A stretch of DNA of 64,000 nucleotides, from contig CAYQEU010000001.1 in assembly GCA_964416765.1 (NCBI GenBank), positions 617,208-681,207 on the forward strand, in the 5' to 3' direction. Position numbers and translations under genes: made by a program. This DNA is from an uncultured Candidatus Saccharibacteria bacterium (GTDB lineage: Bacteria; Patescibacteriota; Doudnabacteria; UBA920). Of the stretch, positions 13,804-64,000 are shown in pieces. The first letter of the stretch is position 1. Each line of letters starts with the position of its first letter. Under the pieces are notes generated by a model. That model was not told where the DNA came from, made no database searches, and saw nothing but the letters and a program-made list of their open reading frames with translations.

Positions 13804-13837
13804 GCCTACAATGAACTTACCAATTAAATATTAATAC

Positions 13838-13935
13838 TTATTTAGGGAAGTCCGGTGTAATTCCGGCACTGTGCCGCAACTGTGACTGGCGCTGTTATAC
13901 AGCAAGCCAGAAGTCAGATCGCTAAATAAGCGTAA
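13838..13935 (+). promoter_or_regulatory. Candidate cobalamin (B12) riboswitch aptamer, short form
   Basis: AGGGAAGTCCGGTGTAATTCCGGCACTGTGCCGCAACTGTGA matches the B12-element core GGGAA..GGTG..AATCC....C.G..CCGC.ACTGT. Downstream ..AAGCCAGAAGTCAGATCGC is a divergent B12-box-like element (AAGCCAGGAGACCTGCC). Nested helices ctggc/gccag and gctgt/acagc. Confidence 0.45.
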
Positions 13936-13967
13936 TTCCCGAGCAGGATTTAAATCTTAATTTTTAA

Positions 13968-13992: not shown

Positions 13993-15852
13993 ATGTCTGA
14001 AAGCGTAGATGATATCGAAATAGACGAAGAAGGCTTAGGCAGTGTTGAAGCTGTCGAGGAAGTCTTTGCGGAATTAGAGGCAGAATCGGAGCGCCACGCC
14101 CGTACAGTTGAGCAATATGAAGAGACTTCCCCGGAAACTGGAATGGACAGCAACTACGGCTCCTACGACCGGGAAACTGGTTCCATATATTTGGACGGCG
14201 TGGAACTGCAGGGCAGCGATGACAAGATTGAAGGGATCAAAGAAAAATTCAAAGAAGGATTCGAGGGTTTGGCAGACTGGTCGGAAGGAGAATGGAACGG
14301 TATTACCTATCGCACAGACTACCATATTGAAGGAAGCACACTTCGGTTGGACACCTATGTTATAGAAGTGAATGAACCCGGGGATTTGGATTCGGGCATT
14401 GAGTCCGACACCGGCAGCGAGGGCGGTGACGAAGACGAGCCAATAGCCGCTTCGAATATTTTGGACACAGAAAGGTCTATTGAAGAGGGCCAAGAGCTGG
14501 TTCACCAGGAGGAACAAGCGTTGGTCGAATCGGTACAAGAAGTGACAGCCTGGTCCAGCTGGTTGGAAGACCCGGGAGAAAGAATAGATGCGCGAACAGA
14601 AACCACAGAAGTTGCCCAAACCGAAAATCCACTAATAATAGAGCGTCCAATATTTGCCTTTGATAATCTGCTTAATGTGGAAGATGGAGGTACCGTTCCG
14701 GCAGAAAGAGTCGGTTCAGCCGACGAGAGTACGGCTGAGATAACAGACCAACCCGAACAGCAGCCCGCTGAGAGATCCGAAACAAATGAGGAAATTTCTG
14801 CCGAACTCAGCCTGCAGACTAACCATGAGAATGCTGAAAGCACCATTGAATCCACAACCGGAAGTACAGGCGCCGGCACTAAACCTGAAACATATAAGGA
14901 AATTCAGATTGAAGACTCTCATAGCTCGGTGGACGGGGCCCCGCAAGAGATGGATAACACTCGTTCCCCGATTAGCCTGAGACGCGAGAATGGCAGACAT
15001 GCTAAAGAACCAGCGCCCGCAGAAGCACGAGCAGTGGAAGCGCTGACGCAGGAAGTGCTGCCGGCAAAAAGTGCATTAGAGTTATCAAGAAAGCCCGACA
15101 CCAAAATTGTGGAGACGGAAAGCGCCCGGGCGGAAACTAAAAATTTAATATTTGAAACAGATTCCCCCATAGAGCAGGAAGACAATGCCGAGTTTGCCCG
15201 GACAGTCCAGCCCATTACTCTTACACGGAATATCAAACGGGGAGTAAAAGTTTCCCGGACCGAGGACATTCACACAACTGATTTTTCATTGGGGAATAAT
15301 CCTGAGCCGCAGGAAATAGCTGTTGAGCTAGCAGAAACTACAGAAACACCTGAAGAGGTTTCCGCTGAAACAGCAGTGATAGAAATTAATGAAATTACTG
15401 CAACTGAGGCGATAAGGATTGAACCAGCGCATCTAGAGAATCAGGAACCAACTATCCAAGAAGCCGCTGAATCGGTTCAAATAGAAGCGCGCACGGAGCA
15501 AATGGAAGCTAGGGAAACCATCCAAAAAACGACAAGCCAGGTTGAGAAAAAAATTACGGAAGTCCGTCGGGAAATCCGCCTGGTAAAAGCCGAAACCAAA
15601 AAAATAGAACAAGTAGCAAGAGAAAGAACCCAGGCCGAAAGAATTTACGAACCGATACGGGAAATCCGCCGGGTTATAATCAACGGTCCCCGCTTGGAAA
15701 CTGGTGGCATTATCCTGCGACGAAACCGGTCCGTCATTAGCACTGAAGAACGTGATCGCCTAGAAAATACTAATCGCATCGTGGAAATCCCCCGTTATAA
15801 TTCTCGCCGCCGGACGCCAACCCGGTCTGCCGCCATTAGACTAGCAGCTTAA
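13993..15852 (+). CDS. Hyper-acidic Glu/Thr/Ser-rich low-complexity (likely disordered) protein, 619 aa
   Basis: Longest ORF in a region full of antisense shadow ORFs. Strongly biased acidic composition. Basic C-terminus (RRNRSVISTEERDRLENTNRIVEIPRYNSRRRTPTRS). Stop lies 7 nt before the Clp-like gene. Confidence 0.55.
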   Translation: MSESVDDIEIDEEGLGSVEAVEEVFAELEAESERHARTVEQYEETSPETGMDSNYGSYDRETGSIYLDGVELQGSDDKIEGIKEKFKEGFEGLADWSEGEWNGITYRTDYHIEGSTLRLDTYVIEVNEPGDLDSGIESDTGSEGGDEDEPIAASNILDTERSIEEGQELVHQEEQALVESVQEVTAWSSWLEDPGERIDARTETTEVAQTENPLIIERPIFAFDNLLNVEDGGTVPAERVGSADESTAEITDQPEQQPAERSETNEEISAELSLQTNHENAESTIESTTGSTGAGTKPETYKEIQIEDSHSSVDGAPQEMDNTRSPISLRRENGRHAKEPAPAEARAVEALTQEVLPAKSALELSRKPDTKIVETESARAETKNLIFETDSPIEQEDNAEFARTVQPITLTRNIKRGVKVSRTEDIHTTDFSLGNNPEPQEIAVELAETTETPEEVSAETAVIEINEITATEAIRIEPAHLENQEPTIQEAAESVQIEARTEQMEARETIQKTTSQVEKKITEVRREIRLVKAETKKIEQVARERTQAERIYEPIREIRRVIINGPRLETGGIILRRNRSVISTEERDRLENTNRIVEIPRYNSRRRTPTRSAAIRLAA

Positions 15853-27261: not shown

Positions 27262-28557
27262 ATGAAAAACTCACTCTTAAAACCCATTAAAGGGTATGGC
27301 TTATCCCTTTTGGCCGCCGCCATGGTACTGGGAGTATTTTCCCCGACGGTTCAAGCGGCGAACCCCTCGCTTCAAGTAACCAGTTACGATAACTATACTT
27401 ACCAAATTTCGGTAAGCGTGGCTGACAGCTATAAGATGGTCTACCTGTATTCCAGGCAGTCCGGAACCCTAAACTGGGAATCTTTCGGCACGATTGGCAG
27501 CACCGACGGCAGTGGCTCACTTAATGCAACCTTTTACGCGGGTTCCGGTGGATACTACAACTATCGGGAATTTTATGTCTTGGTGAACGGCATCCAATCA
27601 AATGTCACTTCGGCTAACAACTATGGCTACGGTGGCGTCACGTTCAGTCAGACTAACCCATCAATGTACGTGGGCCAAAGCCTTCAAATTTCGCTTTATG
27701 GCGGTACAGGAAATTACTACATTTCCAATAACTCCAATTCGTATGTGGTTTCGGCCAACCTCAGTGGCAGCACCCTTTACTTGTACGCCAACCAAAACGG
27801 AAGCAGTACCATTACCGTATGCGGCAACAACTATTACTACTCAGGGAGTAATTGCGGCACCCTCTACGTAACAGTAACCGGTAATAACTACGGCAGCGGC
27901 AACCTATGGTTTAGTCCGAGCAATCCCACGCTGAACGTAGGACAAAGCCTAGCTGTTTCAATAAATAGCAGTAGCGGTACCTATAGTCCCATTTACAATA
28001 ATCCTTATTACATCAGCTATAATTCCAACCCCAGCGTAGTTTCCGCCACGGTGTCAGGCACGGTCCTTAACTTATACGGCTATAGCAATGGAACGAGTAC
28101 TATAACAGTCGCCCACTCCACCATGGGTTGGACGGGAACGGTCTATGTAACGGTTCGGGGCGGGTCAGTCCTGGGTTCCACTACTTACGCCAATGGCCAA
28201 CTGGTGAACCAGGGCGGCACTATTTGCCTTATCTATAAAAATACCTATATCGCTTTCGGCAACAAAGCCGCGTTCCTGGGATTAGGTTATAGCTTTAATA
28301 ATACAATCCCTTCCTACAATAACTTTTCTTACAGCTACGTGGTTACCACCCAGTACGCTTCACACCCCTGGGGGTCATGGGTAAAAGGAGGCCAGACAGT
28401 ATACTTTGTTTCAGAAAATGGCCTTATACCCATTCCGTCCTATGACATCTTCCTAAATAATGGTGGTAAGGATTCCTATGTAGTTCCCATGAATTCTTAT
28501 GACTGGTCGCGCCCTATGCTCCAGCAAATGTCCTACAACGACCAGCGGTTATACTGA
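27262..28557 (+). CDS. Secreted Ser/Asn/Tyr/Gly-rich repeat protein (Ig-like/BIG-like repeats)
   Basis: Signal peptide MKNSLLKPIKGYGLSLLAAAMVLGVFSPTVQA. Repeated ..NPS..VGQSL..S...G..Y..NNS..VVSA..SG..L.LY....G.STITV.. units. Confidence 0.6.
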   Translation: MKNSLLKPIKGYGLSLLAAAMVLGVFSPTVQAANPSLQVTSYDNYTYQISVSVADSYKMVYLYSRQSGTLNWESFGTIGSTDGSGSLNATFYAGSGGYYNYREFYVLVNGIQSNVTSANNYGYGGVTFSQTNPSMYVGQSLQISLYGGTGNYYISNNSNSYVVSANLSGSTLYLYANQNGSSTITVCGNNYYYSGSNCGTLYVTVTGNNYGSGNLWFSPSNPTLNVGQSLAVSINSSSGTYSPIYNNPYYISYNSNPSVVSATVSGTVLNLYGYSNGTSTITVAHSTMGWTGTVYVTVRGGSVLGSTTYANGQLVNQGGTICLIYKNTYIAFGNKAAFLGLGYSFNNTIPSYNNFSYSYVVTTQYASHPWGSWVKGGQTVYFVSENGLIPIPSYDIFLNNGGKDSYVVPMNSYDWSRPMLQQMSYNDQRLY

Positions 28558-37898: not shown

Positions 37899-39311
37899 AT
37901 GAAAATAAAATTTTACGGCGCCGATCAGGAAGTCACTGGCTCCAAACACTTAATCACTGTTCACAACTTTAACCTTTTGCTCGATTGCGGACTTTACCAG
38001 GGAGTTCCCCACGAACAATACGCGATAGCTAACAAACTGCCTTTTGATGCCCGAGATATTGGTGCCTGCGTTTTATCGCACGCGCACATTGACCATTGTG
38101 GCATGCTCCCTCTGTTGGTAAAGGAGGGTTTTCACGGCAACATTTACGCCACCACCGCGACCTGCGATATTTCCCGTTACCTCATGGTGGATGCCGCCAA
38201 AATTCAGGAGCACGACGCCATAAACAGGAACGACCGTATGGGGCCCGGTGAAGACCCGGTCTACCCATTGTTCACCGTAGAGGACGTGGAAGCCGTAATC
38301 CCTCACTTTAAGACCACCCCTTATTTCCACCAAAACAAGCAGTGGCAGCAAATTGCCCCCGGCGTAAAATTAAAATTTTATGACGCGGGACACGTCCTGG
38401 GCTCTGCCATTACCGTACTTGAACTATCTGAAAACGGCCGCACCGCTTATGTCGCCTATACGGGCGATATAGGCCAGCAAGTTGCTCCCATTTTGCCCCC
38501 TCCCGAACTTATCAGCGAGCCCGTGGAAACTCTGATCATGGAATGTACCTACGGTGACAAAACCCACGCCAGCCTTAAACGCACGCTCGAAGAGCTTGAG
38601 GAAGTCATCACCCGCACTTACGAACGTGGAGGCAAGCTGATTGTCCCAGCGTTCTCTCTTGGACGCACCCAGTCGCTAATCTACCTTCTGCACCAACTGT
38701 CAAAGCAGGGCAAACTGCCAAATCAAAAAATTTACATTGACAGCCCTCTAGCCGAAAAGCTTTTGGACGTTTACGTCCACCATCCGGAAGATTATGACAA
38801 AGAAACCTGGGAAGATTTTCCAAAGTCCATGAAGGAACCGCCTTTTGACTTCCCTAACCTGGTTTTGGTTCAAACAACAGACGAATCAAAACAGCTCAAC
38901 GACCTGGAAGGCCCAGCAATTATCATAGCGGCTTCCGGTATGATAGAAGGCGGACGCATTATGCACCATGTCGCCCACCATGCCAGCGATCCGGATAACA
39001 CAATAATGTTTTGCGGCTACCAGGCCGAACATACCACCGGTAGGAAAATCCAGGATGGTGTGAGCCCGGTACGGATCCATGGCCATGAAATCCGCGTGAA
39101 CGCCGAGCGTGTTAGTCTGTCAGGGCTATCAGCCCACGCTGACCGTGACGAGCTGCTGGCTTACGTGGGAAGCCTGGAAAAGACGCTCAGACGCGTGTAT
39201 CTTGTCCATACCGAGTTACCCCAGGCCACGGCCTTTAAAGCCCTGCTATACGACCGTTACCCGCATCTGGACGTCATTATACCGAAGTACGAAGAAGAAA
39301 TGCCGCTATAA
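37899..39311 (+). CDS. MBL-fold beta-CASP family ribonuclease (RNase J / CPSF-like)
   Basis: HAHIDHCG (HxHxDH) motif, beta-CASP region, C-terminal RNA-metabolising MBL domain. 470 aa. Confidence 0.8.
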   Translation: MKIKFYGADQEVTGSKHLITVHNFNLLLDCGLYQGVPHEQYAIANKLPFDARDIGACVLSHAHIDHCGMLPLLVKEGFHGNIYATTATCDISRYLMVDAAKIQEHDAINRNDRMGPGEDPVYPLFTVEDVEAVIPHFKTTPYFHQNKQWQQIAPGVKLKFYDAGHVLGSAITVLELSENGRTAYVAYTGDIGQQVAPILPPPELISEPVETLIMECTYGDKTHASLKRTLEELEEVITRTYERGGKLIVPAFSLGRTQSLIYLLHQLSKQGKLPNQKIYIDSPLAEKLLDVYVHHPEDYDKETWEDFPKSMKEPPFDFPNLVLVQTTDESKQLNDLEGPAIIIAASGMIEGGRIMHHVAHHASDPDNTIMFCGYQAEHTTGRKIQDGVSPVRIHGHEIRVNAERVSLSGLSAHADRDELLAYVGSLEKTLRRVYLVHTELPQATAFKALLYDRYPHLDVIIPKYEEEMPL

Positions 39312-39322
39312 TCGCTCAAATC

Positions 39323-39355
39323 AAAATCCCCGCTGCAGAAGGCGGGGATTTTTTC
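39323..39355. terminator. Bidirectional rho-independent terminator
   Basis: aaaatccccgc ... gcggggatttttt between convergent genes. Confidence 0.85.
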
Positions 39356-39359
39356 AGCT

Positions 39360-42300
39360 TTATTGGTTGATTTGAATGTCGGCCGCTGGACCCAGGCCGA
39401 AGTCGGCTGGACTTTCCAGCGAAGTAATTACCGTCGGATCGGCATGGAATGTGCCAACCCCAACTACCCGGGCAAAGTACACGACGCGCATGGCGCTTGC
39501 CGCAGGACACTTCGGACTCACCGATGTCCCAATAGTAAACTTGATCTTACGTCCATCGACAATGTCAGGATAATTGAATAGCGGATTACATGGATCCTGG
39601 TTTCCTGGAATATACGTATTCTGGATGTCAAAGTAATACGTTGGAGTTATCGGCATCAGCCCAGCTGGGGTTACATCAGTAAGGGTAAATACTTTACTGA
39701 TCCCAACCGCGGTCTTGGGCTGGACTGAAATGGAAACTTTTACCAGATCGCCGTCCTTAAAGGTATTGGTGGTTTTACCATTAACCGAATACGTCCTTTG
39801 GATTGGAATGTTTAAGGTTGGTTTAGTTGAACTGTCAGCCGGTCCTTCATACCAGGTCAGCAACTGCAAGTCCCCGCTTACACCGCTGAATTCCAGTGAA
39901 GACAACTCGCTCGAAAGCAGTTCAAGGTTAAACCGGTTGCCGTTCTTTAATTCAACCGTACCGCTCCGCTGGTTGGTCTTGTAGCTGAATTTCCCGTTCT
40001 CGTGAGGGGCATAAGACAGCGCGGATTTGATAATGAAAGCTTCTTCCAGCGCCGCGGTGTCTTTTTTAGGCTCATGGGAATTGAGATATTCCACAATCTG
40101 GTCGCGGTCTGTGGGGTAGTTAAGCTGGGCCGCGAGCATGCCAGCCAAAGCGGTCAGCTTGCTCTGGCGGGTTTCATCTGGATCGGCAATATAGAGCTGG
40201 CCGTTATCGGCAGTCAATTTTGGCTTAACCTGTTCACTGTAAATTTTGCGCGCGCTTTCCTTGTCGCCGATTACGCCCAAAGCGTTAGCCACGAACATCT
40301 TGTCTTCCAAATCCAATGCCGGTTCGTCTTTAAAGAGCTGGAGTTTGTTAAGGACCGGTTCTTTGTAAGCCGCGAGTCCCAACAATGCTTGTGATATGCG
40401 GTGAGCATCCGCTTTCTGGTCTTTCAGTGATTTATTGAAGTAGAAAACCATGTCGGACTTTGGCAAGCTCTCCGGCACCAAAGCGGCGCCCAAAGCAGAG
40501 ACTTTCAGGTCACTGCTACTGTAAGGGAACAGGCTCATGCCCACCGGGTCAACCCGGTTATCGTCGGTTTTAACCTGGAATATGGAAGCGTCGAAATGAG
40601 GAGCATCACCCGGCATGCCAAATTGGTCATGCAAGACAGACTGCGCGTAAAAACTGGCCGCGCGTTGGTCAAACCTGGTTCCACCCTGCCACGCCAGCCA
40701 GCTGGCGGCACGGAACTGGGAACCTCGCCCTTTATCAGTGACTACAACCTGTGTTAAGCCATTAGCGTTTCCTGGAACGTTCTTGGTATCACCATTTAGG
40801 GTAGATGCGGAAGTCTTCGGGACTGATAAAGCCGAATCCAATACGGTCACGTTACGCTGTAAGTCATCGCTTAGGTTTCCCTGCTGGACTTTTACTTCCA
40901 CGGGATATACACCACTGGAAAGTTTACCTACCGGGACATAGGTAGTATTGCCTTTTATGTCCTGCTCATACTTCAGGTTAATCTGTGGAGCGGATACGGT
41001 AACATGGGCGGGCTTGTTTGGGTCATAGTCTCGCCCGAACACGCGCACGCGGAATTGGGGCTGGTCGCCCTTGTTGTAAGTCTGACCCAAGGTTACATCG
41101 GCAAACAGGGGCAAGCTGGTTGAGATATGGGATAGGGAGTCGCCCGCTTTGATGGCTTTCGGATCGAATGCCTCAGTTGTAATGCGCCAAGAAGTTAAGT
41201 TGTCCGGCAGCTTAAAGCTAAAGCTGGCCTGGCCTCCGCTCAAGTCAGCGCTGCGCGCCAACACGGTGTCCTGGAACTTCACGCGCGGGGTGCCCGCACC
41301 GCCGCCTCCACCACCGCCATCACCATTTCGCCCAGCATACTGGGTTAGTGATACGGCAGGGGTTTCGGTAACGTCTTTGTACAGGTCCACGAGAGTGTTC
41401 GCCGACGGTTCGTACCCGTTCGCGTCGAACACCGCCTGGTCGACCACGTACATATGCACAGTACCGGACGCCGATTTGTTGGAAGCGTCGGTCGCTTTAA
41501 CGGTTGCGTTAACGGTTTCGCCGGGGCGGTACTGGTCCTTATCGGTTTTCACTTCAACCTTCAGCTGCTGGGGCTTGATGTCCTGGGAAACAAACACGCT
41601 GTTTGTTTCTTCAAAACCAACTGGACCCAACACCACCGCCCGGTAGGCAATCCCCGGGCTCATTGGCTGGGAGAAAGTATCGCCGAAAGTCAGCGAGTCG
41701 GAGCTCGATGCTTTGAGGATGTCACGCTGGTACGCGTAGTACAAAATTTTCGTCGGTTTAGATTTGGTTGCGCGCTCCTGGTTGCCAAAAGTAACATTCA
41801 TTTGGAAGTTGTCGCCAACGTTAACCGGGCGCGGGTTGTCCCCTCCGGACAAGGTCAGGGTTGGCTGCAGGCCATATGGATCGGGGTTTCCGCCATTGTA
41901 GAAGCTGGTACCAGCTGAAGTGTAGTAACCCAGGGCGCGGGCAATCTTGCCATCGCCATCGGCCGCTTCCAGCAACAGGGAATAACTGACATTCTCCTCA
42001 ACGGGATATTTCTTGTCGAATTTCCACTGGCCGCCTTTATCGGTACTGCCTGAGAACGTTTCTATGATCTGGTCGGACTTGTCATAAGTGAAAACCGGAC
42101 GGGTGACCTTGTCTATATAATCATAGTATTCACCGGTCTGGCGCGGGGTATAAGTAGTTTTCTTTACGGATACGGTAACCTTTTGATTAACCGCGGGCGG
42201 TGCCTGCTGGTAAACCGGGTCACGGTAGCTATCCGTGTTTTGCTCAAATAAGTTAGTGCTTAATGCACGAGCCGTTACCGTGTAATGGTTGGTTCCTTCC

Positions 42301-44492
42301 TGGGCGGGCTGGTCCTCGAGCGACAAGGAAACCTTAGGGCCGATTATAGTGACATTAGTTGTCGCGGTAATAAAGGCTTCTTCCGCCCGTGCCGGAGTCA
42401 GGGACACGTAGAACCCGCGGGGCCAATAGGCCATGTTTTCGGGGGTGTCTTGGTGGTATGGAAGCTTAACCTTGAATGTCGCTTCACCGGCGCTATTGGT
42501 GGTAACGGTTCCTTCCATGTTGGTGTCGAAGTAACCGCTGTACTTCAAGGTTAGGTTTGGCAGCGGGGTGCCGTCATAAAACTTCGCCGCGACATGGTAA
42601 ACAATATCTTGATCGGTATAGTAGGCTTTCTTGTCAGTGGTTACGGACAATTGGTAGGAAGGTTTGCTGTAGTCGGTAACATTAACCGTATTCTGGCTAA
42701 CTAACTTGCCATCAGCGATGGCCATGATGGTATAGGTATCAGCCGGGAGTCCCGCGAAATCAATCTTCGCTTCGTAGGTGTACATACTGGATACTGGCAC
42801 TTCAGTCGAAGTGACAGGCTGTTTGTCGGTTGGAAGGGCCACGTTACTGCTGGAGTAGGGGCTAAACACCCAGCCGCGGTAAAGGTAAACCTTAACCTTG
42901 CCGGAAGTTTTGATGTCATCACGGGGCTTGGCAATCCCCCAAAACTGGATGGAGTCGGTTGGCTGGTAAAGCGGACGGTCAACCGTGAGGTGCTCCCAGT
43001 ACAGGCTGCCTTCCCGGATGGTGTTCTGGTAGTAGTTTTGGTTGCCCTGTATAACATAGTAAGTTTGGTACCCCTGCGCTTTTACCTGGGTGATGTTAGG
43101 GGCCGCGCCAGCATAGCCACTGCTATCGGTCTGGTGGCGGAATTCTTGCGGAGTGTTAAATTGTGCCAACCCATCGCTGTTGGTGGCCCCCAGCACGCGG
43201 CCGTCGGTCATTTGCAGTGAAACATCCCCTAGCGGTTTTTTCTTATTGAAATCGTAAAGCCAGACCAAACTGCGGTTATAGCTGAATGAAGCGTAGTGTG
43301 CCAACGGGGTTTTTTGGAACCAGACATAAGAATGCTGGGTGCCTGTAGTGGCATCGAGTAAGTAATAACCATCGTCCATGTCCTGAGGTACTTCCGAATA
43401 GGTCTGGTATTCAACTCCCTGAAACACCATGTCATAATCCAAAACTTTACGCGCGCCGTTTATCGATTTCGGCTTGCGCATGGCGTTATAGTACGACCAG
43501 TCAAACTTCCAGTTATCGCTGTCGCGATAGCTGGCAATAAAGTTTTCGCCGCTATCAAACTTATATATAGTGGCCTTGGCTTTTTCGGTTTGATTTACGT
43601 TGGCCTGGAAAACAGGGCGCTTCTGGTAAACATCAGCAAAATCACTCGTGAAGTAAACGCCGCTGTCTTTTGGTCCGTTTTGGCGGGAGGTTTCAAAGCT
43701 AAAGACATAGTCTTTAGCCAGGGTTTCACCGGTAGCGGAAGCTTTCAGTCCTTGCTTTAAGGTGACAGTGTAGACTTTGCCTTCGGCCAAAGCCTGCGCC
43801 GGCTTGAAAATCAAAGTAGCCCCATGCTGTTCAAAGCTCCCCTTTACAGCAGGTTCGATGCTAAAGAACTGATCAGGGTTTTCCACCCCTTCGCGGTTGA
43901 AGTTGATCTCAATCCCGGTGTTAACCGGTACCTCATGGCCGTGGTTAGCAGGCACGCTTTCCAATACTTGGAAATCAGCCTTAATCTGGTAAGCCCAGGA
44001 ATAGTCATGGTCGCCGGGGCCTTCCGCGATGCTAACTGTGTAAATCTGATTTTGCGCCAACGGCCCTTTCGGCACCAGGCGATAACGGTTGTCTCCGGCT
44101 CCCTCTACGGAGTAGTCAACTTCGGGATCAAACTTCACAATCTGGTGTACCTGATACACGGACAGTTTGGCCGAGCTCTTCAAAATAAAGCCGGAACCCG
44201 GTTCAACGCCGGCCGGGCCGGACTGTTCCGCGGTCAATTCAAATGAGGCGTGCGCCAGCGGCACTTTGTAGTATTGGAAGTAGAAGAAGCTGCCGGCAAT
44301 AAGAATCAAGACCAAAGCGGGAACGGCAAACTTCAGCCAGGTGGCAATGTGGCGGCGGCCAGTCGCGCCGGAAGCGCCGGCAAACCCTGGAGCCGATGAC
44401 GGCTTTTCCGCAATGCGCAAAACCTGGTCGCGTAAAGTAAACGGCGCCTTTTCCTTTTGAAACTTATTAAAGATTTTGTCGATTATATCCAT
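39360..44492 (-). CDS. Giant (1710 aa) membrane-anchored alpha-2-macroglobulin-like (MG-domain) protein. The thioester motif is not seen. The short cytoplasmic N-terminus plus TM are anti-sigma-like.
   Basis: A2M-family signature PRVKFQDTVLAR...FKLPDNLTSWRITTEAFD (compare R.DFPETWLW...VPDSITTWR). 50-aa N-terminal cytoplasmic segment then TM (WLKFAVPALVLILIAGSFFYF). Starts 9 nt downstream of the ECF sigma gene. No CxEQ found. Confidence 0.7.
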   Translation of the reverse strand: MDIIDKIFNKFQKEKAPFTLRDQVLRIAEKPSSAPGFAGASGATGRRHIATWLKFAVPALVLILIAGSFFYFQYYKVPLAHASFELTAEQSGPAGVEPGSGFILKSSAKLSVYQVHQIVKFDPEVDYSVEGAGDNRYRLVPKGPLAQNQIYTVSIAEGPGDHDYSWAYQIKADFQVLESVPANHGHEVPVNTGIEINFNREGVENPDQFFSIEPAVKGSFEQHGATLIFKPAQALAEGKVYTVTLKQGLKASATGETLAKDYVFSFETSRQNGPKDSGVYFTSDFADVYQKRPVFQANVNQTEKAKATIYKFDSGENFIASYRDSDNWKFDWSYYNAMRKPKSINGARKVLDYDMVFQGVEYQTYSEVPQDMDDGYYLLDATTGTQHSYVWFQKTPLAHYASFSYNRSLVWLYDFNKKKPLGDVSLQMTDGRVLGATNSDGLAQFNTPQEFRHQTDSSGYAGAAPNITQVKAQGYQTYYVIQGNQNYYQNTIREGSLYWEHLTVDRPLYQPTDSIQFWGIAKPRDDIKTSGKVKVYLYRGWVFSPYSSSNVALPTDKQPVTSTEVPVSSMYTYEAKIDFAGLPADTYTIMAIADGKLVSQNTVNVTDYSKPSYQLSVTTDKKAYYTDQDIVYHVAAKFYDGTPLPNLTLKYSGYFDTNMEGTVTTNSAGEATFKVKLPYHQDTPENMAYWPRGFYVSLTPARAEEAFITATTNVTIIGPKVSLSLEDQPAQEGTNHYTVTARALSTNLFEQNTDSYRDPVYQQAPPAVNQKVTVSVKKTTYTPRQTGEYYDYIDKVTRPVFTYDKSDQIIETFSGSTDKGGQWKFDKKYPVEENVSYSLLLEAADGDGKIARALGYYTSAGTSFYNGGNPDPYGLQPTLTLSGGDNPRPVNVGDNFQMNVTFGNQERATKSKPTKILYYAYQRDILKASSSDSLTFGDTFSQPMSPGIAYRAVVLGPVGFEETNSVFVSQDIKPQQLKVEVKTDKDQYRPGETVNATVKATDASNKSASGTVHMYVVDQAVFDANGYEPSANTLVDLYKDVTETPAVSLTQYAGRNGDGGGGGGGAGTPRVKFQDTVLARSADLSGGQASFSFKLPDNLTSWRITTEAFDPKAIKAGDSLSHISTSLPLFADVTLGQTYNKGDQPQFRVRVFGRDYDPNKPAHVTVSAPQINLKYEQDIKGNTTYVPVGKLSSGVYPVEVKVQQGNLSDDLQRNVTVLDSALSVPKTSASTLNGDTKNVPGNANGLTQVVVTDKGRGSQFRAASWLAWQGGTRFDQRAASFYAQSVLHDQFGMPGDAPHFDASIFQVKTDDNRVDPVGMSLFPYSSSDLKVSALGAALVPESLPKSDMVFYFNKSLKDQKADAHRISQALLGLAAYKEPVLNKLQLFKDEPALDLEDKMFVANALGVIGDKESARKIYSEQVKPKLTADNGQLYIADPDETRQSKLTALAGMLAAQLNYPTDRDQIVEYLNSHEPKKDTAALEEAFIIKSALSYAPHENGKFSYKTNQRSGTVELKNGNRFNLELLSSELSSLEFSGVSGDLQLLTWYEGPADSSTKPTLNIPIQRTYSVNGKTTNTFKDGDLVKVSISVQPKTAVGISKVFTLTDVTPAGLMPITPTYYFDIQNTYIPGNQDPCNPLFNYPDIVDGRKIKFTIGTSVSPKCPAASAMRVVYFARVVGVGTFHADPTVITSLESPADFGLGPAADIQINQ

Positions 44493-44500
44493 ATACCTAT

Positions 44501-45031
44501 TTATACAGCTTCAATATTAGCGGTCTGCGGCAGCGCTTTGAACAACATTGTCTTGCCGCGGTAAAAATTGCTTTTGGCGGTGTTGGGAGAAATGTCCAGT
44601 ACCTCGCCGATCTGCTCAAAAGTCATGTCCTCAAAATATTTCAGTACCATAACTTCACTATATTGGGGTGGGAGGTTACTTATTTCACGCTTCACCTGGT
44701 CCAAAAGTTCCGAATTGTCCAGTTGGGTTTCGATTGCGGGCAGGTCGGCCGGGACATCAAAGGTTTCGTCGTCTTCCACCAGGGAAGAAAAGGCGGTAGC
44801 TTTCTTGCGCTTGATGTGATCCAGGCAGTTATTCCGCGCCACTTTAAAAAGCCAGGGTTTTACCGGCTTGGACATATCGAGCTTGGTCATGTTGTGGTAA
44901 AAGCTCAAAAAGGTTTTTTGTACGATATCATCCGCTTCATCAGCGTCAAAAAGCATATATTTGGCGAAGTTGTAAATTTCGTCTATATGCGCGTTCACGA
45001 TATCGGTGTATGCCTGTTCTTGTCGATCCAT
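44501..45031 (-). CDS. ECF-type RNA polymerase sigma factor
   Basis: Region 2 (DIVQKTFLSFYHNMTKL...PWLFKVARNNCLDHIKRKK) and region 4 (MTFEQIGEVLDISPNTAKSNFYRGKTML). Confidence 0.85.
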   Translation of the reverse strand: MDRQEQAYTDIVNAHIDEIYNFAKYMLFDADEADDIVQKTFLSFYHNMTKLDMSKPVKPWLFKVARNNCLDHIKRKKATAFSSLVEDDETFDVPADLPAIETQLDNSELLDQVKREISNLPPQYSEVMVLKYFEDMTFEQIGEVLDISPNTAKSNFYRGKTMLFKALPQTANIEAV

Positions 45032-45258
45032 GTACGGAGGTTAGCCACTAATCTGTTAGTTCTATTATATCACGCCATCTTTAAATGTAGCGCAAAATAA
45101 AGGCGATTTTCGTCTATGAGTACCACGACCACCCGAGCCAAAAAGTTTCATAAATCCTTCATATTTCACATATGATATATAATTTGACAAAACCGCCCGA
45201 AAGACATAAAATTCAGCTGAATTTAGCCCATGCTATATATCATATAAGTAATATCACT

Positions 45259-46776
45259 ATGTCTACTTTAACCGACCAAAAGAAGATAGGGGCCTCCATT
45301 ACTGAGATCCGCGAACTCCAGGGCATGACCCAAAAACAGCTTGCTACTGCCCTTAAAACCAGCCAAAGCGCCGTGGCGCGCATGGAAAATGGCCAGCAGA
45401 ACTTTACCACCGAGATGCTGAACAAAATCTCCAAAGTCCTGCGCCAGCAGATCATAACCCTGGGCGAATCCCAGAGCGTTAAGATCGAAGGTGGGGCTCC
45501 CCTGTCCGGCAGCATTACCGTTAACACTTCCAAGAACGCGGCGGTGGCTTTGTTGTGCGCGTCCCTCCTGAACCGCGGAAAAACCACTTTGCGCCACGTT
45601 CCGAAAATTGAGGAAGTTCACCGCATCATTGAAGTGCTTACTTCCATTGGCGTATCGGTGAAATGGGATGGGAGTGACCTGGAAATCCAGCGCCCGGCTA
45701 AACTCAACCTCGACAACATAGACAAAGAAGCCGCGGTAAAGACCCGCAGTGTCCTCTTAATGCTTGGCCCGCTGAGCCACCTGTTTACGGAATTCCGCCT
45801 GCCTTTAGCCGGTGGCTGTAAACTCGGTGAGCGCACCGTGCGCCCGCATTTGTTCGCCCTGGAAAAGATGGGCGTAAAGATTAAAGCACACCATGACTAC
45901 TACCAAGTCAGCCGCAAGCGAATGAAGGCCGCGGAAATTGTCCTTTATGAATCAGGTGATACCGTAACCGAAAACGCCATTATGGCTGCCGCGCGCATTC
46001 CGGGCAAAACCACTATCAAAATGGCTTCCTCCAACTACATGGTCCAGGACCTGTGCCACTTCCTGCAGCTGCTGGGCGTAAAAATCGAAGGCATCGGCAG
46101 CAATACTTTGACCATTACCGGAAAGTCTAAACTCGAAAAGAACGTAATTTACTCCCTGAGCGAAGACCCGATTGAAGCCATGATGTTCCTGTCCCTGGCT
46201 GCAACCACCAACTCTGCTTTAACCATTAAACGCTGCCCGATTGATTTCCTGGAACTGGAACTTCTGAAGCTGGAAAAGATGGGCTGGAAGTTTAAGGTGG
46301 GCAAAAGCTACAAGAGCCGGAACAACTTTACGAACCTTGTGGATATTCAGACATTCAAGTCGCCCCGACTGAAAGCTCTGGAAGAAAAAATCTACGCCCG
46401 TCCCTTCCCTGGCTTAAATATAGACAATCTGCCATTCTTCGTGCCGGTTGCCACCCGAGCCAAGGGAACTACCCTTATCCACGACTGGGTTTACGAAACC
46501 CGCGCCCTCTACTATATGGAACTTGAGAAGCTGCGCGCTAACATAATCTTGGCGGACCCGCACCGGGTTTACATTGAAGGACCCACTGAACTCCGCGCCG
46601 CTGACATTGTTTGCCCGCCAGCCCTTCGCCCCGCTTCTATCATTCTAATTGCAATGATAGCCGCACGAGGAACATCCACCCTCTCCAACATCTATTCGAT
46701 AAATCGGGGTTACGAAAACCTTATTGAACGGTTGAAGTCCATTGGGGCAAAGATTGAAGTAGTGTACGGATTGTAA
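45259..46776 (+). CDS. murA: UDP-N-acetylglucosamine 1-carboxyvinyltransferase fused to an N-terminal XRE-family HTH domain
   Basis: N-terminus ITEIRELQGMTQKQLATALKTSQSAVARMENGQQNFTTEMLNKISKVL (HTH_XRE). MurA core: KIEGGAPLSGSITVNTSKNAAVALLCASLL, catalytic Cys in LAGGCKLGERTVRPH, C-terminal NRGYENLIERLKSIGAKIEVV. The alternative upstream ATG at 45172 would add 29 aa. Confidence 0.8.
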   Translation: MSTLTDQKKIGASITEIRELQGMTQKQLATALKTSQSAVARMENGQQNFTTEMLNKISKVLRQQIITLGESQSVKIEGGAPLSGSITVNTSKNAAVALLCASLLNRGKTTLRHVPKIEEVHRIIEVLTSIGVSVKWDGSDLEIQRPAKLNLDNIDKEAAVKTRSVLLMLGPLSHLFTEFRLPLAGGCKLGERTVRPHLFALEKMGVKIKAHHDYYQVSRKRMKAAEIVLYESGDTVTENAIMAAARIPGKTTIKMASSNYMVQDLCHFLQLLGVKIEGIGSNTLTITGKSKLEKNVIYSLSEDPIEAMMFLSLAATTNSALTIKRCPIDFLELELLKLEKMGWKFKVGKSYKSRNNFTNLVDIQTFKSPRLKALEEKIYARPFPGLNIDNLPFFVPVATRAKGTTLIHDWVYETRALYYMELEKLRANIILADPHRVYIEGPTELRAADIVCPPALRPASIILIAMIAARGTSTLSNIYSINRGYENLIERLKSIGAKIEVVYGL

Positions 46777-50063: not shown

Positions 50064-51431
50064 TTAGTAATCGCGTAGCTTGTGGATGTCTACGTGTTCC
50101 TTGATGCGTTCCAAAGCCTTGGCTTCAATTTGACGGATGCGTTCGCGGGTAACCCCGAACTCTTCGCCCACTTCTTCCAAAGTGTGGGTCACCCCGTCTT
50201 CGAGACCAAAGCGCAGCTTCAGAATCTTTTGTTCACGGGGGTCGAGGTCTCGCAAGATGTCCTGGACATACTCTTTAAGCAACTGGCGGCCAGCCATTTC
50301 GGTCGGCTTCGGTCGGTCATCATCCTCAATGAAATCAGCCAGGTAGGAGCCTTCTTCGTCACTCTCTTCGCCTACCGGCGCGTCAATGGAAACGGTTTCC
50401 TGGGAAATCTTCTTCAAGTGATAGACCTTTTCAACATCCACGCCCATCTCAGCGGCAATTTCTTCCGGCAACGGTTCACGGCCCAAATCCTGGACGAGCT
50501 GGCGTTCCGCCTGAGCGTACTTATTCAACGTTTCAACCATGTGCACTGGAATACGGATGGTGCGGGATTGGTCAGCCAAAGCGCGGGTTATGGCCTGGCG
50601 GATCCACCAGGTCGCGTAAGTGGAAAACTTGTAGCCTTTGCGCCAATCAAATTTTTCGACGGCGCGGAACAACCCCAGGTTCCCTTCCTGAATAAGGTCG
50701 AGGAGGCCCAGGTTACGGCCCATGTACTTTTTGGCAATGGATACAACCAAACGAAGGTTGGCTTCGGTCAGCTTCTTGCGGGCAGCTTCATCGCCTTTGC
50801 CAATGCGCTTGGCCAGTTCAATTTCTTCGGCTCCGGTAATAAGGGCGACCTTACCGATTTCACGGAGGTACATCTGGATGGAGTCATCATAGATATCCTG
50901 CAGGTCAAAACCGCCCATGGTTTCTTCCTTCTTCTTCCGACCTTCGTCAGTTTCTTCGGCGGCAATGCGCCCCTGCTCCCAAACACTGGAAACTTCCTGG
51001 TCAACAATTTCAATACCGGATTTTTCAAGGTCATCCATTACGCTTTCAAGCGCATCAATATCATCTTCCAGGTGCGGGAAGGTATGCAAAATTTCGGCTT
51101 CCGTGACAAAGCCACGAGCCTTACCTTTTTTGATGAGCTCCTTTAAAGCGGCGCGGGTTTCTTCAGAATGCTCAACCGGAGCGGCCTTCTTTCTTCCCGG
51201 TCGGCCCTTGCCGGACTTGGCGGCGCGCTCGGAAGCTTTTGCCGCTATTTTTTTACGGGAACTAATTCCCGGCTTTGGAGCGGGTTTGGTTGCTTTAGCC
51301 TTAGCCTTTGGTTTAGCCGCAGGCTTGGTTTTGACAGTTTTCTTGGCCTTGGTTGGCGCCTTAGCGGCCTTTTTCGGGGCAGCTTTTTTGGCCGGTCTTC
51401 CGGCCGTTTTTTTCTTCAATTTGGTTGCCAT
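50064..51431 (-). CDS. rpoD: Primary RNA polymerase sigma factor (sigma-70) with Lys/Ala/Pro-rich histone-H1-like N-terminal extension
   Basis: [29 protein letters not shown] (region 2.4/3), region 4 HTH. N-terminus [30 protein letters not shown]... Confidence 0.95.
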
Positions 51432-51441
51432 GCGTTAAAAA

Positions 51442-53205
51442 TTAAAGTTGGTTCTCCAACTGGATTCTTTGGTTGGTTAAAGCGGCAAACTGGCGATTCA
51501 AATCATTCAGCAGATTTGCATCACCTGAGCTTTGCGCCTTATTAATGTGTACTGTAAGGTCTTGTAGCTGACGTTTGAGGTGCGTAAGTTTTATGAGGTT
51601 AGCGCTTTTTTCGAGATCGCGCAGATAAACGTTACGGTCGTTAGCTACTTCATCTAGTCCTGATTCTACCATAAAAATGGCTTCTTTGGCTAGGGTATCG
51701 GTGGCATTATCATAGGTCATTTCCCCGGCCAAAACCTGGGCCACTAGGGGGCGCAAATCCTCCCCAAAAGCCTCGGCCGGGAGGCCCTCGGTGCGCACGG
51801 TGCCCAGAAATTCAGGAAAAGTCAGCATTCCACCCAAAATCTGCTTTTCGGTCAAAAGCTGGGGATTCGCGGGGGCGGTTATAATTGTCGCCGGGGCGGT
51901 CTTAGGAGTATCCCCCTGCTGGGGTTTGCTGGCGGCGTCTCTAACCACGCGCTCGGAAATACCAAACTTTTCGCTCAGCTTCTTTACGTAGTGATCCTGC
52001 TCCACGGGATTGGAAATATAGTAGAGCAGTGGAATTACCAGTTCATTCAAATACTGCTTCTGTTCCAGAGAGCCTGATTCAAAATTGTCCGCGGCTTGGT
52101 TGAGGTAAAAATCAACAAACCATACCGCTTCCTTCACTGCTTTCTGCCACATACCGGGTGAGCTGCGAATCAAGTCATCCGGGTCTTTTGCTTTGCCTTC
52201 GCCCCGCTCGAGTATTATTACCTTTACGGCGAATCCCATTTGCAGGGCCAGCTTGCCTGCGCGCTGGGTGGCCGCAATTCCGGCGGAGTCCGCGTCAAAG
52301 CAAAACTTCAATTGCTTGGTAAGACGGGATAGCAACCGCAAATGGTCTTCTGTCAGAGCGGTGCCCGATGTAGCCACAGTATTGGTAAACCCTGCCTGGT
52401 GGGCCTGGATGACGTCCATTTGCCCCTCAACAATAACTACTTCATTAGCCTTACGGATTGCCTCTTTGGCGAAGTTCAGGCCGAACATTACCTTGCTCTT
52501 GTTGTAGATCGCGGTTTCGGGAGAATTTACGTATTTAGCGGCGTCGGTTTCACCTCCCGGCAAGATGCGGGCGGAGAACCCCACCACGTCACCGCGGTAA
52601 TTGAAGATCGGAAAGGTAATCCGGTTCCGGAAACGGTCAAAAGTTTGGCCGCGTTCGGACTTTGACGCTACCCCCGCCGCCTGCATCCGCTCAAAACTGA
52701 TTTTCTTTTCCGACAACAACTTTTGCAGGAAATCAAACTGGTTAGGCGCGAAACCGATTCGCCACAACTCGATGGTCTGCTCCGACAACCCCCGGTCTTT
52801 TAGGTATTGGCGGGCGTTTTCGGCCCCTGGTTGCGTATTTAGAAAGCGGTGGTAAACTTCCGCCGCGAAGGAGTTTACACGTAATAAATCGTCTGTGACG
52901 TCAGCTTGTTTCGGTTGGTAGACGGGCAATTGCACTCCAGCGCGGTCGGCCAGCAATTCCAGGGTTTCGCGGAAATCCAAATTTTCATAGCGCATGACAA
53001 ACCCGAACACATCCCCGCCTTCGCCGCAGCCAAAGCAGTGCCAGATTTGTTTCTGGGGCGACACCATCAAGCTTGCCGTGCGCTCACCATGAAAAGGGCA
53101 GACAGCCTTGTAGTTGGTGCCGCTTTTTTTCAACTCTATATAACCGCCGATAACCTCAGTGAGATTCAACCGGTCTTTAATGTCATTTATTACCTGGTCC
53201 GCCAT
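51442..53205 (-). CDS. dnaG: DNA primase
   Basis: Zinc ribbon CPFHGERTASLMVSPQKQIWHCFGCGEGGDVFGF, TOPRIM domain. Immediately upstream of rpoD. Confidence 0.95.
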   Translation of the reverse strand: MADQVINDIKDRLNLTEVIGGYIELKKSGTNYKAVCPFHGERTASLMVSPQKQIWHCFGCGEGGDVFGFVMRYENLDFRETLELLADRAGVQLPVYQPKQADVTDDLLRVNSFAAEVYHRFLNTQPGAENARQYLKDRGLSEQTIELWRIGFAPNQFDFLQKLLSEKKISFERMQAAGVASKSERGQTFDRFRNRITFPIFNYRGDVVGFSARILPGGETDAAKYVNSPETAIYNKSKVMFGLNFAKEAIRKANEVVIVEGQMDVIQAHQAGFTNTVATSGTALTEDHLRLLSRLTKQLKFCFDADSAGIAATQRAGKLALQMGFAVKVIILERGEGKAKDPDDLIRSSPGMWQKAVKEAVWFVDFYLNQAADNFESGSLEQKQYLNELVIPLLYYISNPVEQDHYVKKLSEKFGISERVVRDAASKPQQGDTPKTAPATIITAPANPQLLTEKQILGGMLTFPEFLGTVRTEGLPAEAFGEDLRPLVAQVLAGEMTYDNATDTLAKEAIFMVESGLDEVANDRNVYLRDLEKSANLIKLTHLKRQLQDLTVHINKAQSSGDANLLNDLNRQFAALTNQRIQLENQL

Positions 53206-62631: not shown

Positions 62632-62638
62632 CCATAAA

Positions 62639-62751
62639 TGGGCGACTACCTACTTTTCCACCCGCATGCACGGGAGTATCATCGGCACAAGCACGTTTTA
62701 CTTCTGAGTTCGGGAAGGGATCAGGTAGGACCGCGCCGTAAATGCCACCCA
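62639..62751 (-). rRNA. rrf: 5S ribosomal RNA
   Basis: Reverse complement matches 5S conserved blocks (..TTACTTCTGAGTTCGG.AGGGATCAGGTAGGACCGCGCC..). Helix I closes with G-U pairs. Ends are approximate. Confidence 0.8.
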
Positions 62752-62977
62752 AATCTTACCGGGAATTACTTCCCCGCAAAATCCGGGCGACATTAAGTCA
62801 CTAGGGCTTAATGTAAGCTACTAAACCGTTGCTGAGGACAAAGAATACCGCGCCAAGCGCGAGTATCGACAGAGTCACGGCAACGATTGTTACACGTCGT
62901 TTTAACATTGTACAAGAACAAATTAGTTTTAAATAAAACTAGAAAAGATAATCCTAAAAGGAAAATCAAAACTTTCG

Positions 62978-64000
<1,023 letters not shown>

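Follow-up and report, generated by a model that had tools for sequence, protein, structure and literature searches.

Background

Pairs formed by a sigma factor of the extracytoplasmic function (ECF) type and its anti-sigma factor are a major route of transmembrane signalling in bacteria, and the signal is known for few of them. We describe here a pair residing in a 64,000-nucleotide (nt) stretch of contig CAYQEU010000001.1 (hereafter, the window), in which the gene of an ECF sigma factor directly precedes a giant open reading frame (ORF) encoding a candidate membrane-anchored anti-sigma factor, the exterior of which is similar to alpha-2-macroglobulin (A2M). The nearest named relatives of the pair are found in Candidatus Doudnabacteria and other Patescibacteria, and the host is probably, judging from them, a member of the Patescibacteria (candidate phyla radiation, CPR) close to Doudnabacteria.

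Among the described sigma/anti-sigma pairs, RsiW, the partner of B. subtilis sigma-W, is eliminated in two steps, proteolysis outside the cytoplasm and then cleavage by RasP, and the consensus of SigW promoters is of the TGAAAC-N16-CGTA type. In sigma-V/RsiV of B. subtilis and C. difficile, and in sigma-P/RsiP of B. thuringiensis, an ECF sigma factor is followed, as proposed for the locus described here, by a single-pass anti-sigma factor. The N-terminus of the latter is short and cytoplasmic, a signal-anchor leads to an AxA-type site just outside the membrane, the ectodomain binds a ligand, and the operon is autoregulated (PMC4183432, PMC6066255, PMC8844934). Signal peptidase is the site-1 protease of RsiV, where cleavage is gated by lysozyme (PMC4183432, PMC6066255), and of RsiP, where it is gated by beta-lactams (PMC8844934). 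The likeness is one of layout. No sequence homology links the giant protein to RsiV or RsiP, since Pfam finds in it Big_5 and A2M-type domains only; the ectodomains of RsiV and RsiP are small, and sense lysozyme or beta-lactams, whereas the one described here is A2M-like and spans 1630 amino acids (aa), and its AxA motif is a putative cleavage site. RsiW differs as well, because it has a zinc-binding zf-HC2 domain which is missing in the giant protein.

Of the bacterial A2Ms, ECAM (YfhM) is a diderm lipoprotein equipped with a CxEQ thioester, and its gene neighbours that of PBP1C (Budd 2004, Wong and Dessen 2014, Garcia-Ferrer 2015). The giant protein shares with ECAM and with Salmonella A2M, its top profile and Foldseek matches, the multidomain fold, the order of the domains and the anchoring to the cytoplasmic membrane. 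In contrast to ECAM, it lacks the thioester, is anchored by an N-terminal transmembrane (TM) helix, has no PBP1C-like gene among the neighbouring genes, and is partnered by a sigma factor; in addition, the hosts of its family are Patescibacteria, Bacillota and Chloroflexota. A2M-like proteins devoid of the CxEQ thioester are known, among which P. aeruginosa MagD and proteins of the E. coli YfaS type, and the gene of MagD, from a diderm bacterium, is part of the mag operon of six genes, with no known link to a sigma factor. The giant protein is thioester-less as MagD (compared by description only) and YfaS-type proteins are, but it is sigma-linked, and no mag-like genes occur among the neighbouring genes.

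The earlier note on this DNA, compiled from the letters alone, knew of no description of the architecture, and no paper or annotation describing the combination was found. Literature searches that joined macroglobulin to anti-sigma, ECF or sigma factor gave nothing relevant, within incomplete literature coverage, and the 2021 reclassification of ECF sigma factors does not mention A2M in its main text. In databases the homologs are named "hypothetical", "alpha-2-macroglobulin", "Ig-like domain-containing" or "dockerin…", never "anti-sigma". What is apparently new, and well supported by comparison of sequences, is the pairing of an ECF sigma factor with a membrane protein which has the layout of an anti-sigma factor and a thioester-less A2M exterior.

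A conserved pair of sigma factor and A2M-like genes

The smaller gene of the pair encodes an ordinary ECF (group IV) sigma factor, as the earlier note had proposed. The protein matches in Pfam Sigma70_r2 (2.9e-15) and Sigma70_r4_2 (6.7e-14) only, with no r3 or r1 match, and hits the TIGR02937 ECF superfamily model with 98.2 bits (cut-off 42.9). Scores against NCBIfam equivalogs are all far below cut-off, and the best of them (118.6 vs 209 bits) shows that the protein is not SigW itself, though B. subtilis SigW is its closest solved relative (5wuq, E=5.8e-24). Size and position of both ORFs (Table 1) are as first reported; the spacer from the sigma stop codon to the start codon of the A2M-like gene measures 8 nt, one less than originally counted. 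Such a spacer is too short to host a promoter, and separate transcription of the giant ORF is thus not supported. A scan of positions 39000-45400 for terminator-like sites and sigma-70 promoters found none above shuffled expectation.

The pair is conserved. Sigma and A2M-like genes are adjacent in 12/12 further orthologous loci examined, several of which have unrelated flanks. Looking from the A2M side, an ECF sigma gene lies directly 5' of P0005, P0006 and P0007 (53%, 42% and 35% identity), and the genes flanking the pair are unrelated in the P0006 and P0007 loci. In the Doudnabacteria ortholog L012 the sigma gene is located 4 nt upstream of the A2M-like gene. A metagenome scan with the N-terminal motif of the giant protein retrieved four loci, all with the sigma gene directly 5'. 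Looking from the other side, each of four sigma homologs (48-78% identity) is directly followed 3' by a large A2M-like gene, which encodes 1676-1831 aa or is truncated where the contig ends. Where DNA is available for an orthologous locus, the gap between the two genes is between -14 and +9 nt.

An element fitting [TC]G[CA]AAC-N17/18-CGT is found upstream of the sigma gene in all 10 orthologous loci with DNA. Its longer consensus is [TC]G[CA]AAC-T[AT]TTT…-CGT, and the distance from AAC to CGT is 17 nt, 18 in L086. The strict form is found in 8/10 loci, the exceptions being L086 (N18) and L088 (CGCAAC), against a background of 0.0033 matches per 250 nt. Sequences AAC at -35 and CGT at -10 are the signature of SigW/SigM/SigX-type ECF promoters, and here the element resembles the TGAAAC-N16-CGTA type mentioned above. 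The conservation of a -35 AAC/-10 CGT element 5' of the sigma gene implies autoregulation, and we infer that the element is an autoregulatory promoter. In the whole window the pattern has two matches, a number not above chance. The second (27935-27960, minus strand) was considered as a site of the regulon and rejected, because an ORF of the plus strand encloses it and chance can account for two matches.

Elements of this type were also met in front of A2M-like genes devoid of an adjacent sigma gene. In five of these, from Bacillota and Symbiobacteriaceae, TG[AC]AAC-N17-CGTC is located 31-48 nt 5' of the start codon (Table 1); about 0.9 relaxed matches are expected over all upstream regions of the family survey described below. 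This suggests that members of the A2M-like family are often targets of an ECF regulon even where no sigma gene is adjacent.

The exterior of the giant protein

The giant protein is composed of a cytoplasmic N-terminus of 48 aa, one TM helix and an exterior of ~1630 aa, with the ectodomain starting at about residue 84; the segment of ~50 aa plus one helix noted beforehand corresponds, by hydropathy and AlphaFold2 (AF2) modelling, to 48 aa and helix 49-75. The earlier note had recognized A2M by the motifs RVKFQDT, which starts at residue 1070, and LPDNLTSWRI, leaving the matter to profile searches. Both motifs are there, and the assignment holds in Pfam, where A2M_BRD and A2M score above their cut-offs (Table 1) and weaker MG2, MG4 and bMG3 matches were also obtained, in profile comparisons with solved structures, and in AF2/Foldseek analyses. 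A profile built from 32 family members matched E. coli YfhM/ECAM (E about 4e-24) and Salmonella A2M (3.6e-19), then insect TEP1, human A2M, C4, CVF and C3; the best stretch against YfhM is the C-terminal part, and bMG10 Pfam matches were found in orthologs. The AF2 model of residues 700-1710 (mean predicted local distance difference test score, pLDDT, 80.4) contains beta-sandwich domains, and has ECAM (5a42, E=4.7e-40) as top Foldseek match, followed by Salmonella A2M (4u48), human A2ML1, TEP1 and C5. The N-terminal 720 residues are modelled as a chain of beta-domains. No Pfam TED match was obtained for the giant protein, nor is there an NCBIfam model for it.

The absence of a thioester noted at first sight is borne out. 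CxEQ is missing in the giant protein, the sole cysteines of which, C1635 and C1662, are both in the C-terminal domain, and in the family homologs P0001-P0056; it is found in four of the more distant matches P0057-P0063 (P0057, P0061, P0062 and P0063). Similarly, the departure from the lipoprotein A2Ms paired with PBP1C is real, as the N-terminus is made of a cytoplasmic segment and a TM helix without cysteine, and no lipoprotein anchor was found. Taken together, profiles and model indicate that the exterior is a genuine bacterial A2M of a thioester-less kind. The disordered Gly-rich loop corresponds in position to the canonical bait site, at the junction of the bait-region domain (BRD) and MG7, and its GGxGxGG consensus is kept across the family. 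To the bacterial A2Ms studied so far, which are diderm forms, lipoproteins, linked to PBP1C or encoded in mag operons, a new large clade is added, thioester-less and hosted in monoderm and CPR lineages.

Relatives of the giant protein carry, exactly in the Gly-rich loop at the bait position, an inserted Hint (bacterial-intein-like) domain of ~130 aa. The insert begins at GG|CF…, with Cys1, and ends with …YxHN followed by A, E, Q or D, and there is thus no +1 nucleophile. Three carriers are sigma-linked orthologs of the Doudnabacteria type. A BLAST coverage of ~60% had hinted at a C-terminal replacement, an idea refuted by the alignment, which places the domain in the bait-position loop and leaves MG7, the TED-like domain and MG10 in place on its C-terminal side. 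The insert could either cleave the chain at the bait site, or provide a reactive thioester in a thioester-less family; the Hint of sister lineages, with a thioester at Cys1, could stand for pre-processing of the receptor, or for restored covalent chemistry. RsgI, which has an autoproteolytic ectodomain, is a conceptual analogue of the Hint-containing orthologs, with no homology to them, and autocleavage in the latter is putative. Hint domains at the bait position of sister genes are an unexpected lead on processing, or reactivity, of A2M-like proteins.

A different appendage is found in P0040, from Acetivibrio clariflavus, a member of the same thioester-less family which carries a type I dockerin; loci L031, L041, L046, L054 and L061 are its relatives. 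This suggests an A2M form attached to the cellulosome. The clostridial members of the family have plain signal peptides.

The cytoplasmic N-terminus as a candidate anti-sigma module

The first 26 residues of the giant protein are proposed to bind the sigma factor. Among 11 orthologs, the N-terminal segments of which are only 31-60% identical, they are strongly conserved, with no variation at M1, I4, D5, K6, F8, P17, L20 and L25, and AF2 predicts, with low confidence, short helices at residues 3-9 and 18-25. The linker spanning residues 27-48 differs among orthologs in both length and sequence. Basic residues preceding the TM helix (GRRH; R46, R47) indicate an N-in topology according to the positive-inside rule, and the giant protein is predicted, from sequence and model, to be an N-in single-pass protein with a cytoplasmic N-terminus. 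The AHA motif (residues 80-82) directly follows the TM helix and directly precedes SFELTAE, the first conserved motif of the ectodomain. An AxA-type motif occurs at the equivalent place in orthologs and in 9/10 sigma-linked relatives. Many of the sigma-less relatives that start with a plain signal peptide have it too, and in these it is evidently an ordinary signal-peptide cleavage site.

The pattern F[KTQ][LV]PDN[LIV]T[SAT]W retrieved at least 525 confirmed relatives from GTDB representatives. Of these, 80 were surveyed, their genomes being representatives of species in Patescibacteria, Bacillota, Chloroflexota and other groups. An A2M-like ORF was callable in 76/80 loci, and in 10 of these 76 an ECF sigma gene lies directly upstream on the same strand. 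The first TM helix starts at residue 35 or beyond in all 10 sigma-linked loci, but only in 9/59 sigma-less ones (Fisher p=2.7e-7), ORF starts being longest-ORF calls, possibly over-extended in some sigma-less loci. Most of the sigma-less relatives begin with an ordinary signal peptide or anchor. The sigma-linked loci fall into at least five ectodomain-identity groups, with different N-terminal types, which implies that the fusion has been repeatedly gained or lost; for several of them the nearest neighbour is sigma-less, as for L074 versus L071 (71% identity). Repeated fusion in Patescibacteria and Bacillota argues for a general functional logic, rather than an accident. In one sigma-linked locus of Bacillota (L053), the N-terminus of the A2M-like protein is a zf-HC2 domain (5.9e-7, above cut-off), having as best PDB matches the anti-sigma factors RsiW (5wuq_C), DdvA and RsrA. 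Survey and L053 are the strongest indirect support to the view that N-terminal extensions in the A2M-like family are anti-sigma modules. In many of the family extensions, including APFTLRDQVLRI, inspection by eye revealed a P-x(2-3)-[FL]-x3-[LIV]-x3-[LI] helix preceding linker and TM helix, which may resemble the helix that closes class I anti-sigma domains.

A different conserved cytoplasmic module, MAQDIFSYIREAYASGMTK…GW…D…F.EYE, is found at the N-terminus of P0015-P0017, P0019 and L007. No adjacent sigma gene was detected for these relatives.

The anti-sigma assignment has weak sides. The N-terminus of the giant protein matched nothing in Pfam (E up to 10), and retrieved from PDB sequences no anti-sigma chain, only TM-helix noise (PsbJ); judged by homology, it does not belong to a known family of anti-sigma domains. 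The ordered part, moreover, is made of ~26 residues (two short helices, low pLDDT), and is shorter than a class I anti-sigma domain. One may thus suppose that the two genes are merely co-expressed: the A2M-like protein would be the main product of the sigma regulon, its N-terminus a mere anchor, and the sigma factor would be controlled otherwise. The lack of homology to known anti-sigma domains fits this scenario, as does the presence of TGAAAC-N17-CGTC 31-48 nt upstream of several sigma-less Firmicutes relatives, which shows that an A2M-like gene may be an ECF target without encoding an anti-sigma factor. Yet, a mere anchor would not retain eight invariant cytoplasmic residues among orthologs as divergent as these, nor would cytoplasmic extensions mark sigma-adjacent genes so sharply, or a zf-HC2 anti-sigma domain take the same position in L053. 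Moreover, no second anti-sigma candidate was found between or beside the sigma and A2M-like genes. Simple co-expression is therefore regarded as very unlikely, and the giant protein as very probably, on sequence grounds, the cognate anti-sigma factor of the adjacent ECF sigma factor. The anti-sigma role proposed at the outset has thus gained from the conserved pairing, the promoter, the 26-residue motif and the zf-HC2 domain of L053, and lost from the missing homology of its own N-terminus. Missing homology had been feared in combination with separate transcription of the sigma gene; the former is a fact, of the latter no signal was seen.

Table 1. Features of the sigma/A2M-like pair, of the window and of related loci. 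Coordinates refer to the window unless preceded by the name of a locus.
Feature	Position	Strand	Basis or remark
ECF sigma factor gene, 176 aa	44501..45031	-	Pfam, TIGR02937, PDB profile match
Giant ORF, 1710 aa, candidate membrane-anchored anti-sigma factor with A2M-like ectodomain	39360..44492	-	
8-nt spacer ATAGGTAT, sigma stop codon to A2M-like start codon	44493..44500	-	
ECF-type promoter candidate TGAAAC-N17-CGT	45125..45150	-	94 nt 5' of sigma start codon
Residues 1-26, motif MDIIDKIFxKxxKExAPxxLRxxVL, proposed sigma-binding module	44415..44492	-	ortholog conservation
Residues 27-48, variable disordered cytoplasmic linker, basic end GRRH	44349..44414	-	pLDDT <50
Residues 49-75, single TM helix (signal-anchor)	44268..44348	-	hydropathy and AF2 helix
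Residues 80-82, A-H-A, signal-peptidase-I-type small-x-small motif, preceded by Pro78	44247..44255	-	motif only
Residues 174-268, Big_5 bacterial Ig-like domain	43689..43973	-	Pfam 8.8e-16; confident AF2 beta-domain
Residues 887-1023, A2M bait-region domain (BRD)	41424..41834	-	PF07703 30.8 bits, cut-off 22.7
Residues 1046-1067, disordered Gly-rich loop …GRNGDGGGGGGGAGTP	41292..41357	-	pLDDT <50, model residues 347-368
Residues 1086-1155, A2M (MG7) domain with LPDNLTSWRI	41028..41237	-	PF00207 29.3 bits, cut-off 21
Residues 1254-1494, helical TED-like domain without thioester	40011..40733	-	AF2 all-helical, model residues 555-795
Residues 1500-1710, C-terminal beta-sandwich (MG10/receptor-binding-domain-like)	39363..39995	-	AF2 strands
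Hint insertion carriers	L012:2224-7707 (residues ~1063-1194), L088, L089, P0010-P0020, P0035		
TG[AC]AAC-N17-CGTC, sigma-less loci	L024:5816-5841, L037:5749-5774, L054:5823-5848, L062:2449-2474, L067:5737-5762		
Peptidase_M50 gene, 207 aa	L081:11425-12048		directly 3' of A2M-like gene
HTH_3/EPSP-synthase fusion gene, 534 aa	45172-46776	+	divergent from sigma gene
rpoD and dnaG	50064-53205		housekeeping genes
AdoCbl (cobalamin) riboswitch	13818-13965	+	61.4 bits, above gathering score
619-aa ORF	13993-15852		directly 3' of the riboswitch
5S rRNA	62637-62752	-	
23S rRNA, 3' part	62962-64000	-	

A proposed model for the release of the sigma factor

According to the scenario that we favour, the sigma factor would drive its own promoter, TGAAAC-N17-CGT, and be co-translated with its cognate single-pass anti-sigma factor, the conserved 26-residue cytoplasmic N-terminus of which would sequester it at the membrane. 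The exterior of ~1630 aa would stand on the surface of the CPR cell as a thioester-less protease trap of the A2M type. The most plausible ectodomain event is the attack, or engagement, of the Gly-rich loop at the bait position by a foreign protease, which would be followed by a large conformational change of the A2M type. The AxA site just outside the membrane would then be exposed and cut by signal peptidase (site 1), a site-2 protease would cut the residual stub, and the freed sigma factor would transcribe more sigma factor and more A2M-like protein, so that the shield is replenished. We infer, in this sequence of events, the binding of the sigma factor by the N-terminus, the nature of the signal, the use of AxA and the site-2 cleavage. 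Activation by regulated intramembrane proteolysis of the RsiV/RsiP/RsiW type is, by analogy, the most likely route. The statement as a whole, i.e. an autoregulated operon encoding a membrane anti-sigma factor with an A2M exterior, and protease-triggered release, has in our opinion about an even chance of being correct. Protease attack as the trigger, taken by itself, is a tentative proposal. The notion that the A2M-like ectodomain is a bacterial protease-activated receptor, in which engagement of the bait loop unmasks AxA and the sigma factor rebuilds the shield, must be viewed as doubtful.

Several facts tell against a release of this kind. The bait-position loop is ~970 residues away from the membrane, and its cleavage alone, by which the sigma factor might be freed according to the earlier note, would leave a remnant much too big to be a substrate for a site-2 protease; the AxA at residues 80-82 is a better candidate for the membrane-proximal second event which is needed. 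A phmmer search found no site-2 protease gene in the window. Protease trapping by thioester-less members of the A2M clade is itself putative. Finally, AxA is the ordinary signal-peptide site of the family, and could thus be cut constitutively, which favours the alternative discussed next. In favour of the scenario, a gene of the site-2 protease family Peptidase_M50 is the direct 3' neighbour of the A2M-like gene in one orthologous locus, L081; phmmer detected no Peptidase_M50 homolog in the window, nor in any of the remaining 82 loci, and the adjacency is anecdotal.

If AxA is cut whenever the protein is exported, the anti-sigma module may be seen as the long n-region of a cleavable signal peptide, and the pair as a device for export-coupled feedback, for which FlgM, an anti-sigma factor coupled to export and not homologous to the giant protein, is a conceptual analogue. 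The sigma factor would be held until translocation and cleavage at AHA|S, and freed upon degradation of the leftover signal peptide; the synthesis of a secreted protein of 1710 aa would in this way be matched to the secretion capacity, and nothing outside the cell would be sensed. In agreement with this, AxA coincides with the signal-peptide site of sigma-less relatives (e.g. VYA|EEYRNGF), ahead of the same first ectodomain motif, a hydrophobic core of ~18 residues and a Pro-containing c-region resemble a signal peptide of the monoderm type, and some relatives, such as the dockerin-bearing P0040, are evidently released or attached elsewhere. However, in combination with a self-activating promoter the device would amount to a positive feedback with no obvious off-state, and the 27-residue helix modelled by AF2 looks more like a stable anchor than like the h-region of a typical signal peptide. 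Furthermore, RsiV and RsiP are gated by ligands, and not constitutively processed (PMC4183432, PMC8844934). Export-coupled feedback is thus held to be unlikely.

A third alternative accepts the anti-sigma function, and questions the stimulus. The ectodomain might sense contact, adhesion or the state of the envelope, e.g. the surface of a host cell, a mechanical pull or the status of the cell wall, the A2M scaffold having been re-used as receptor or adhesin by an episymbiotic CPR cell. Patescibacteria are thought to live attached to hosts, and the nearest named relatives of the pair are found among them; in addition, the lack of CxEQ throughout P0001-P0056 means that the classical covalent trap is missing, and Big_5, an Ig-like domain of a sort typical of surface proteins, is found in the N-terminal half. 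Against this alternative, none of the A2M domains is missing from the usual order (BRD, flexible loop at the bait position, MG7, TED-like, MG10), a protease trap, ECAM, is the best fold match, and a dockerin-bearing homolog in a cellulolytic Clostridium fits the role of protective inhibitor. Contact sensing is therefore deemed quite unlikely. Coming back to protease-triggered release, an anti-sigma factor sensing through A2M would, if real, offer a concrete candidate signal, protease attack at the cell surface, and would tie a eukaryote-like innate-defence module directly to transcription. For a CPR genome, which is small, much is invested in a gene of 5.1 kb that has a sigma factor to itself.

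Neighbouring genes and other features of the window

The genes flanking the sigma/A2M-like pair are functionally unrelated to it. The downstream neighbour, convergent, encodes a beta-CASP RNase. The upstream one, divergent, encodes a helix-turn-helix domain (HTH_3, Cro/C1-type) fused to an EPSP-synthase/MurA-type enolpyruvyl transferase, and is followed by the genes of a response regulator and of a histidine kinase. The same fusion gene is found in synteny at L082/L083 and at the locus of P0070. The window also hosts rpoD and dnaG and, at its end, 5S and 23S rRNA genes, from which it follows that the locus is chromosomal, and does not reside on a mobile element. At a distance from the pair, an AdoCbl riboswitch directly precedes the 619-aa ORF listed in Table 1.

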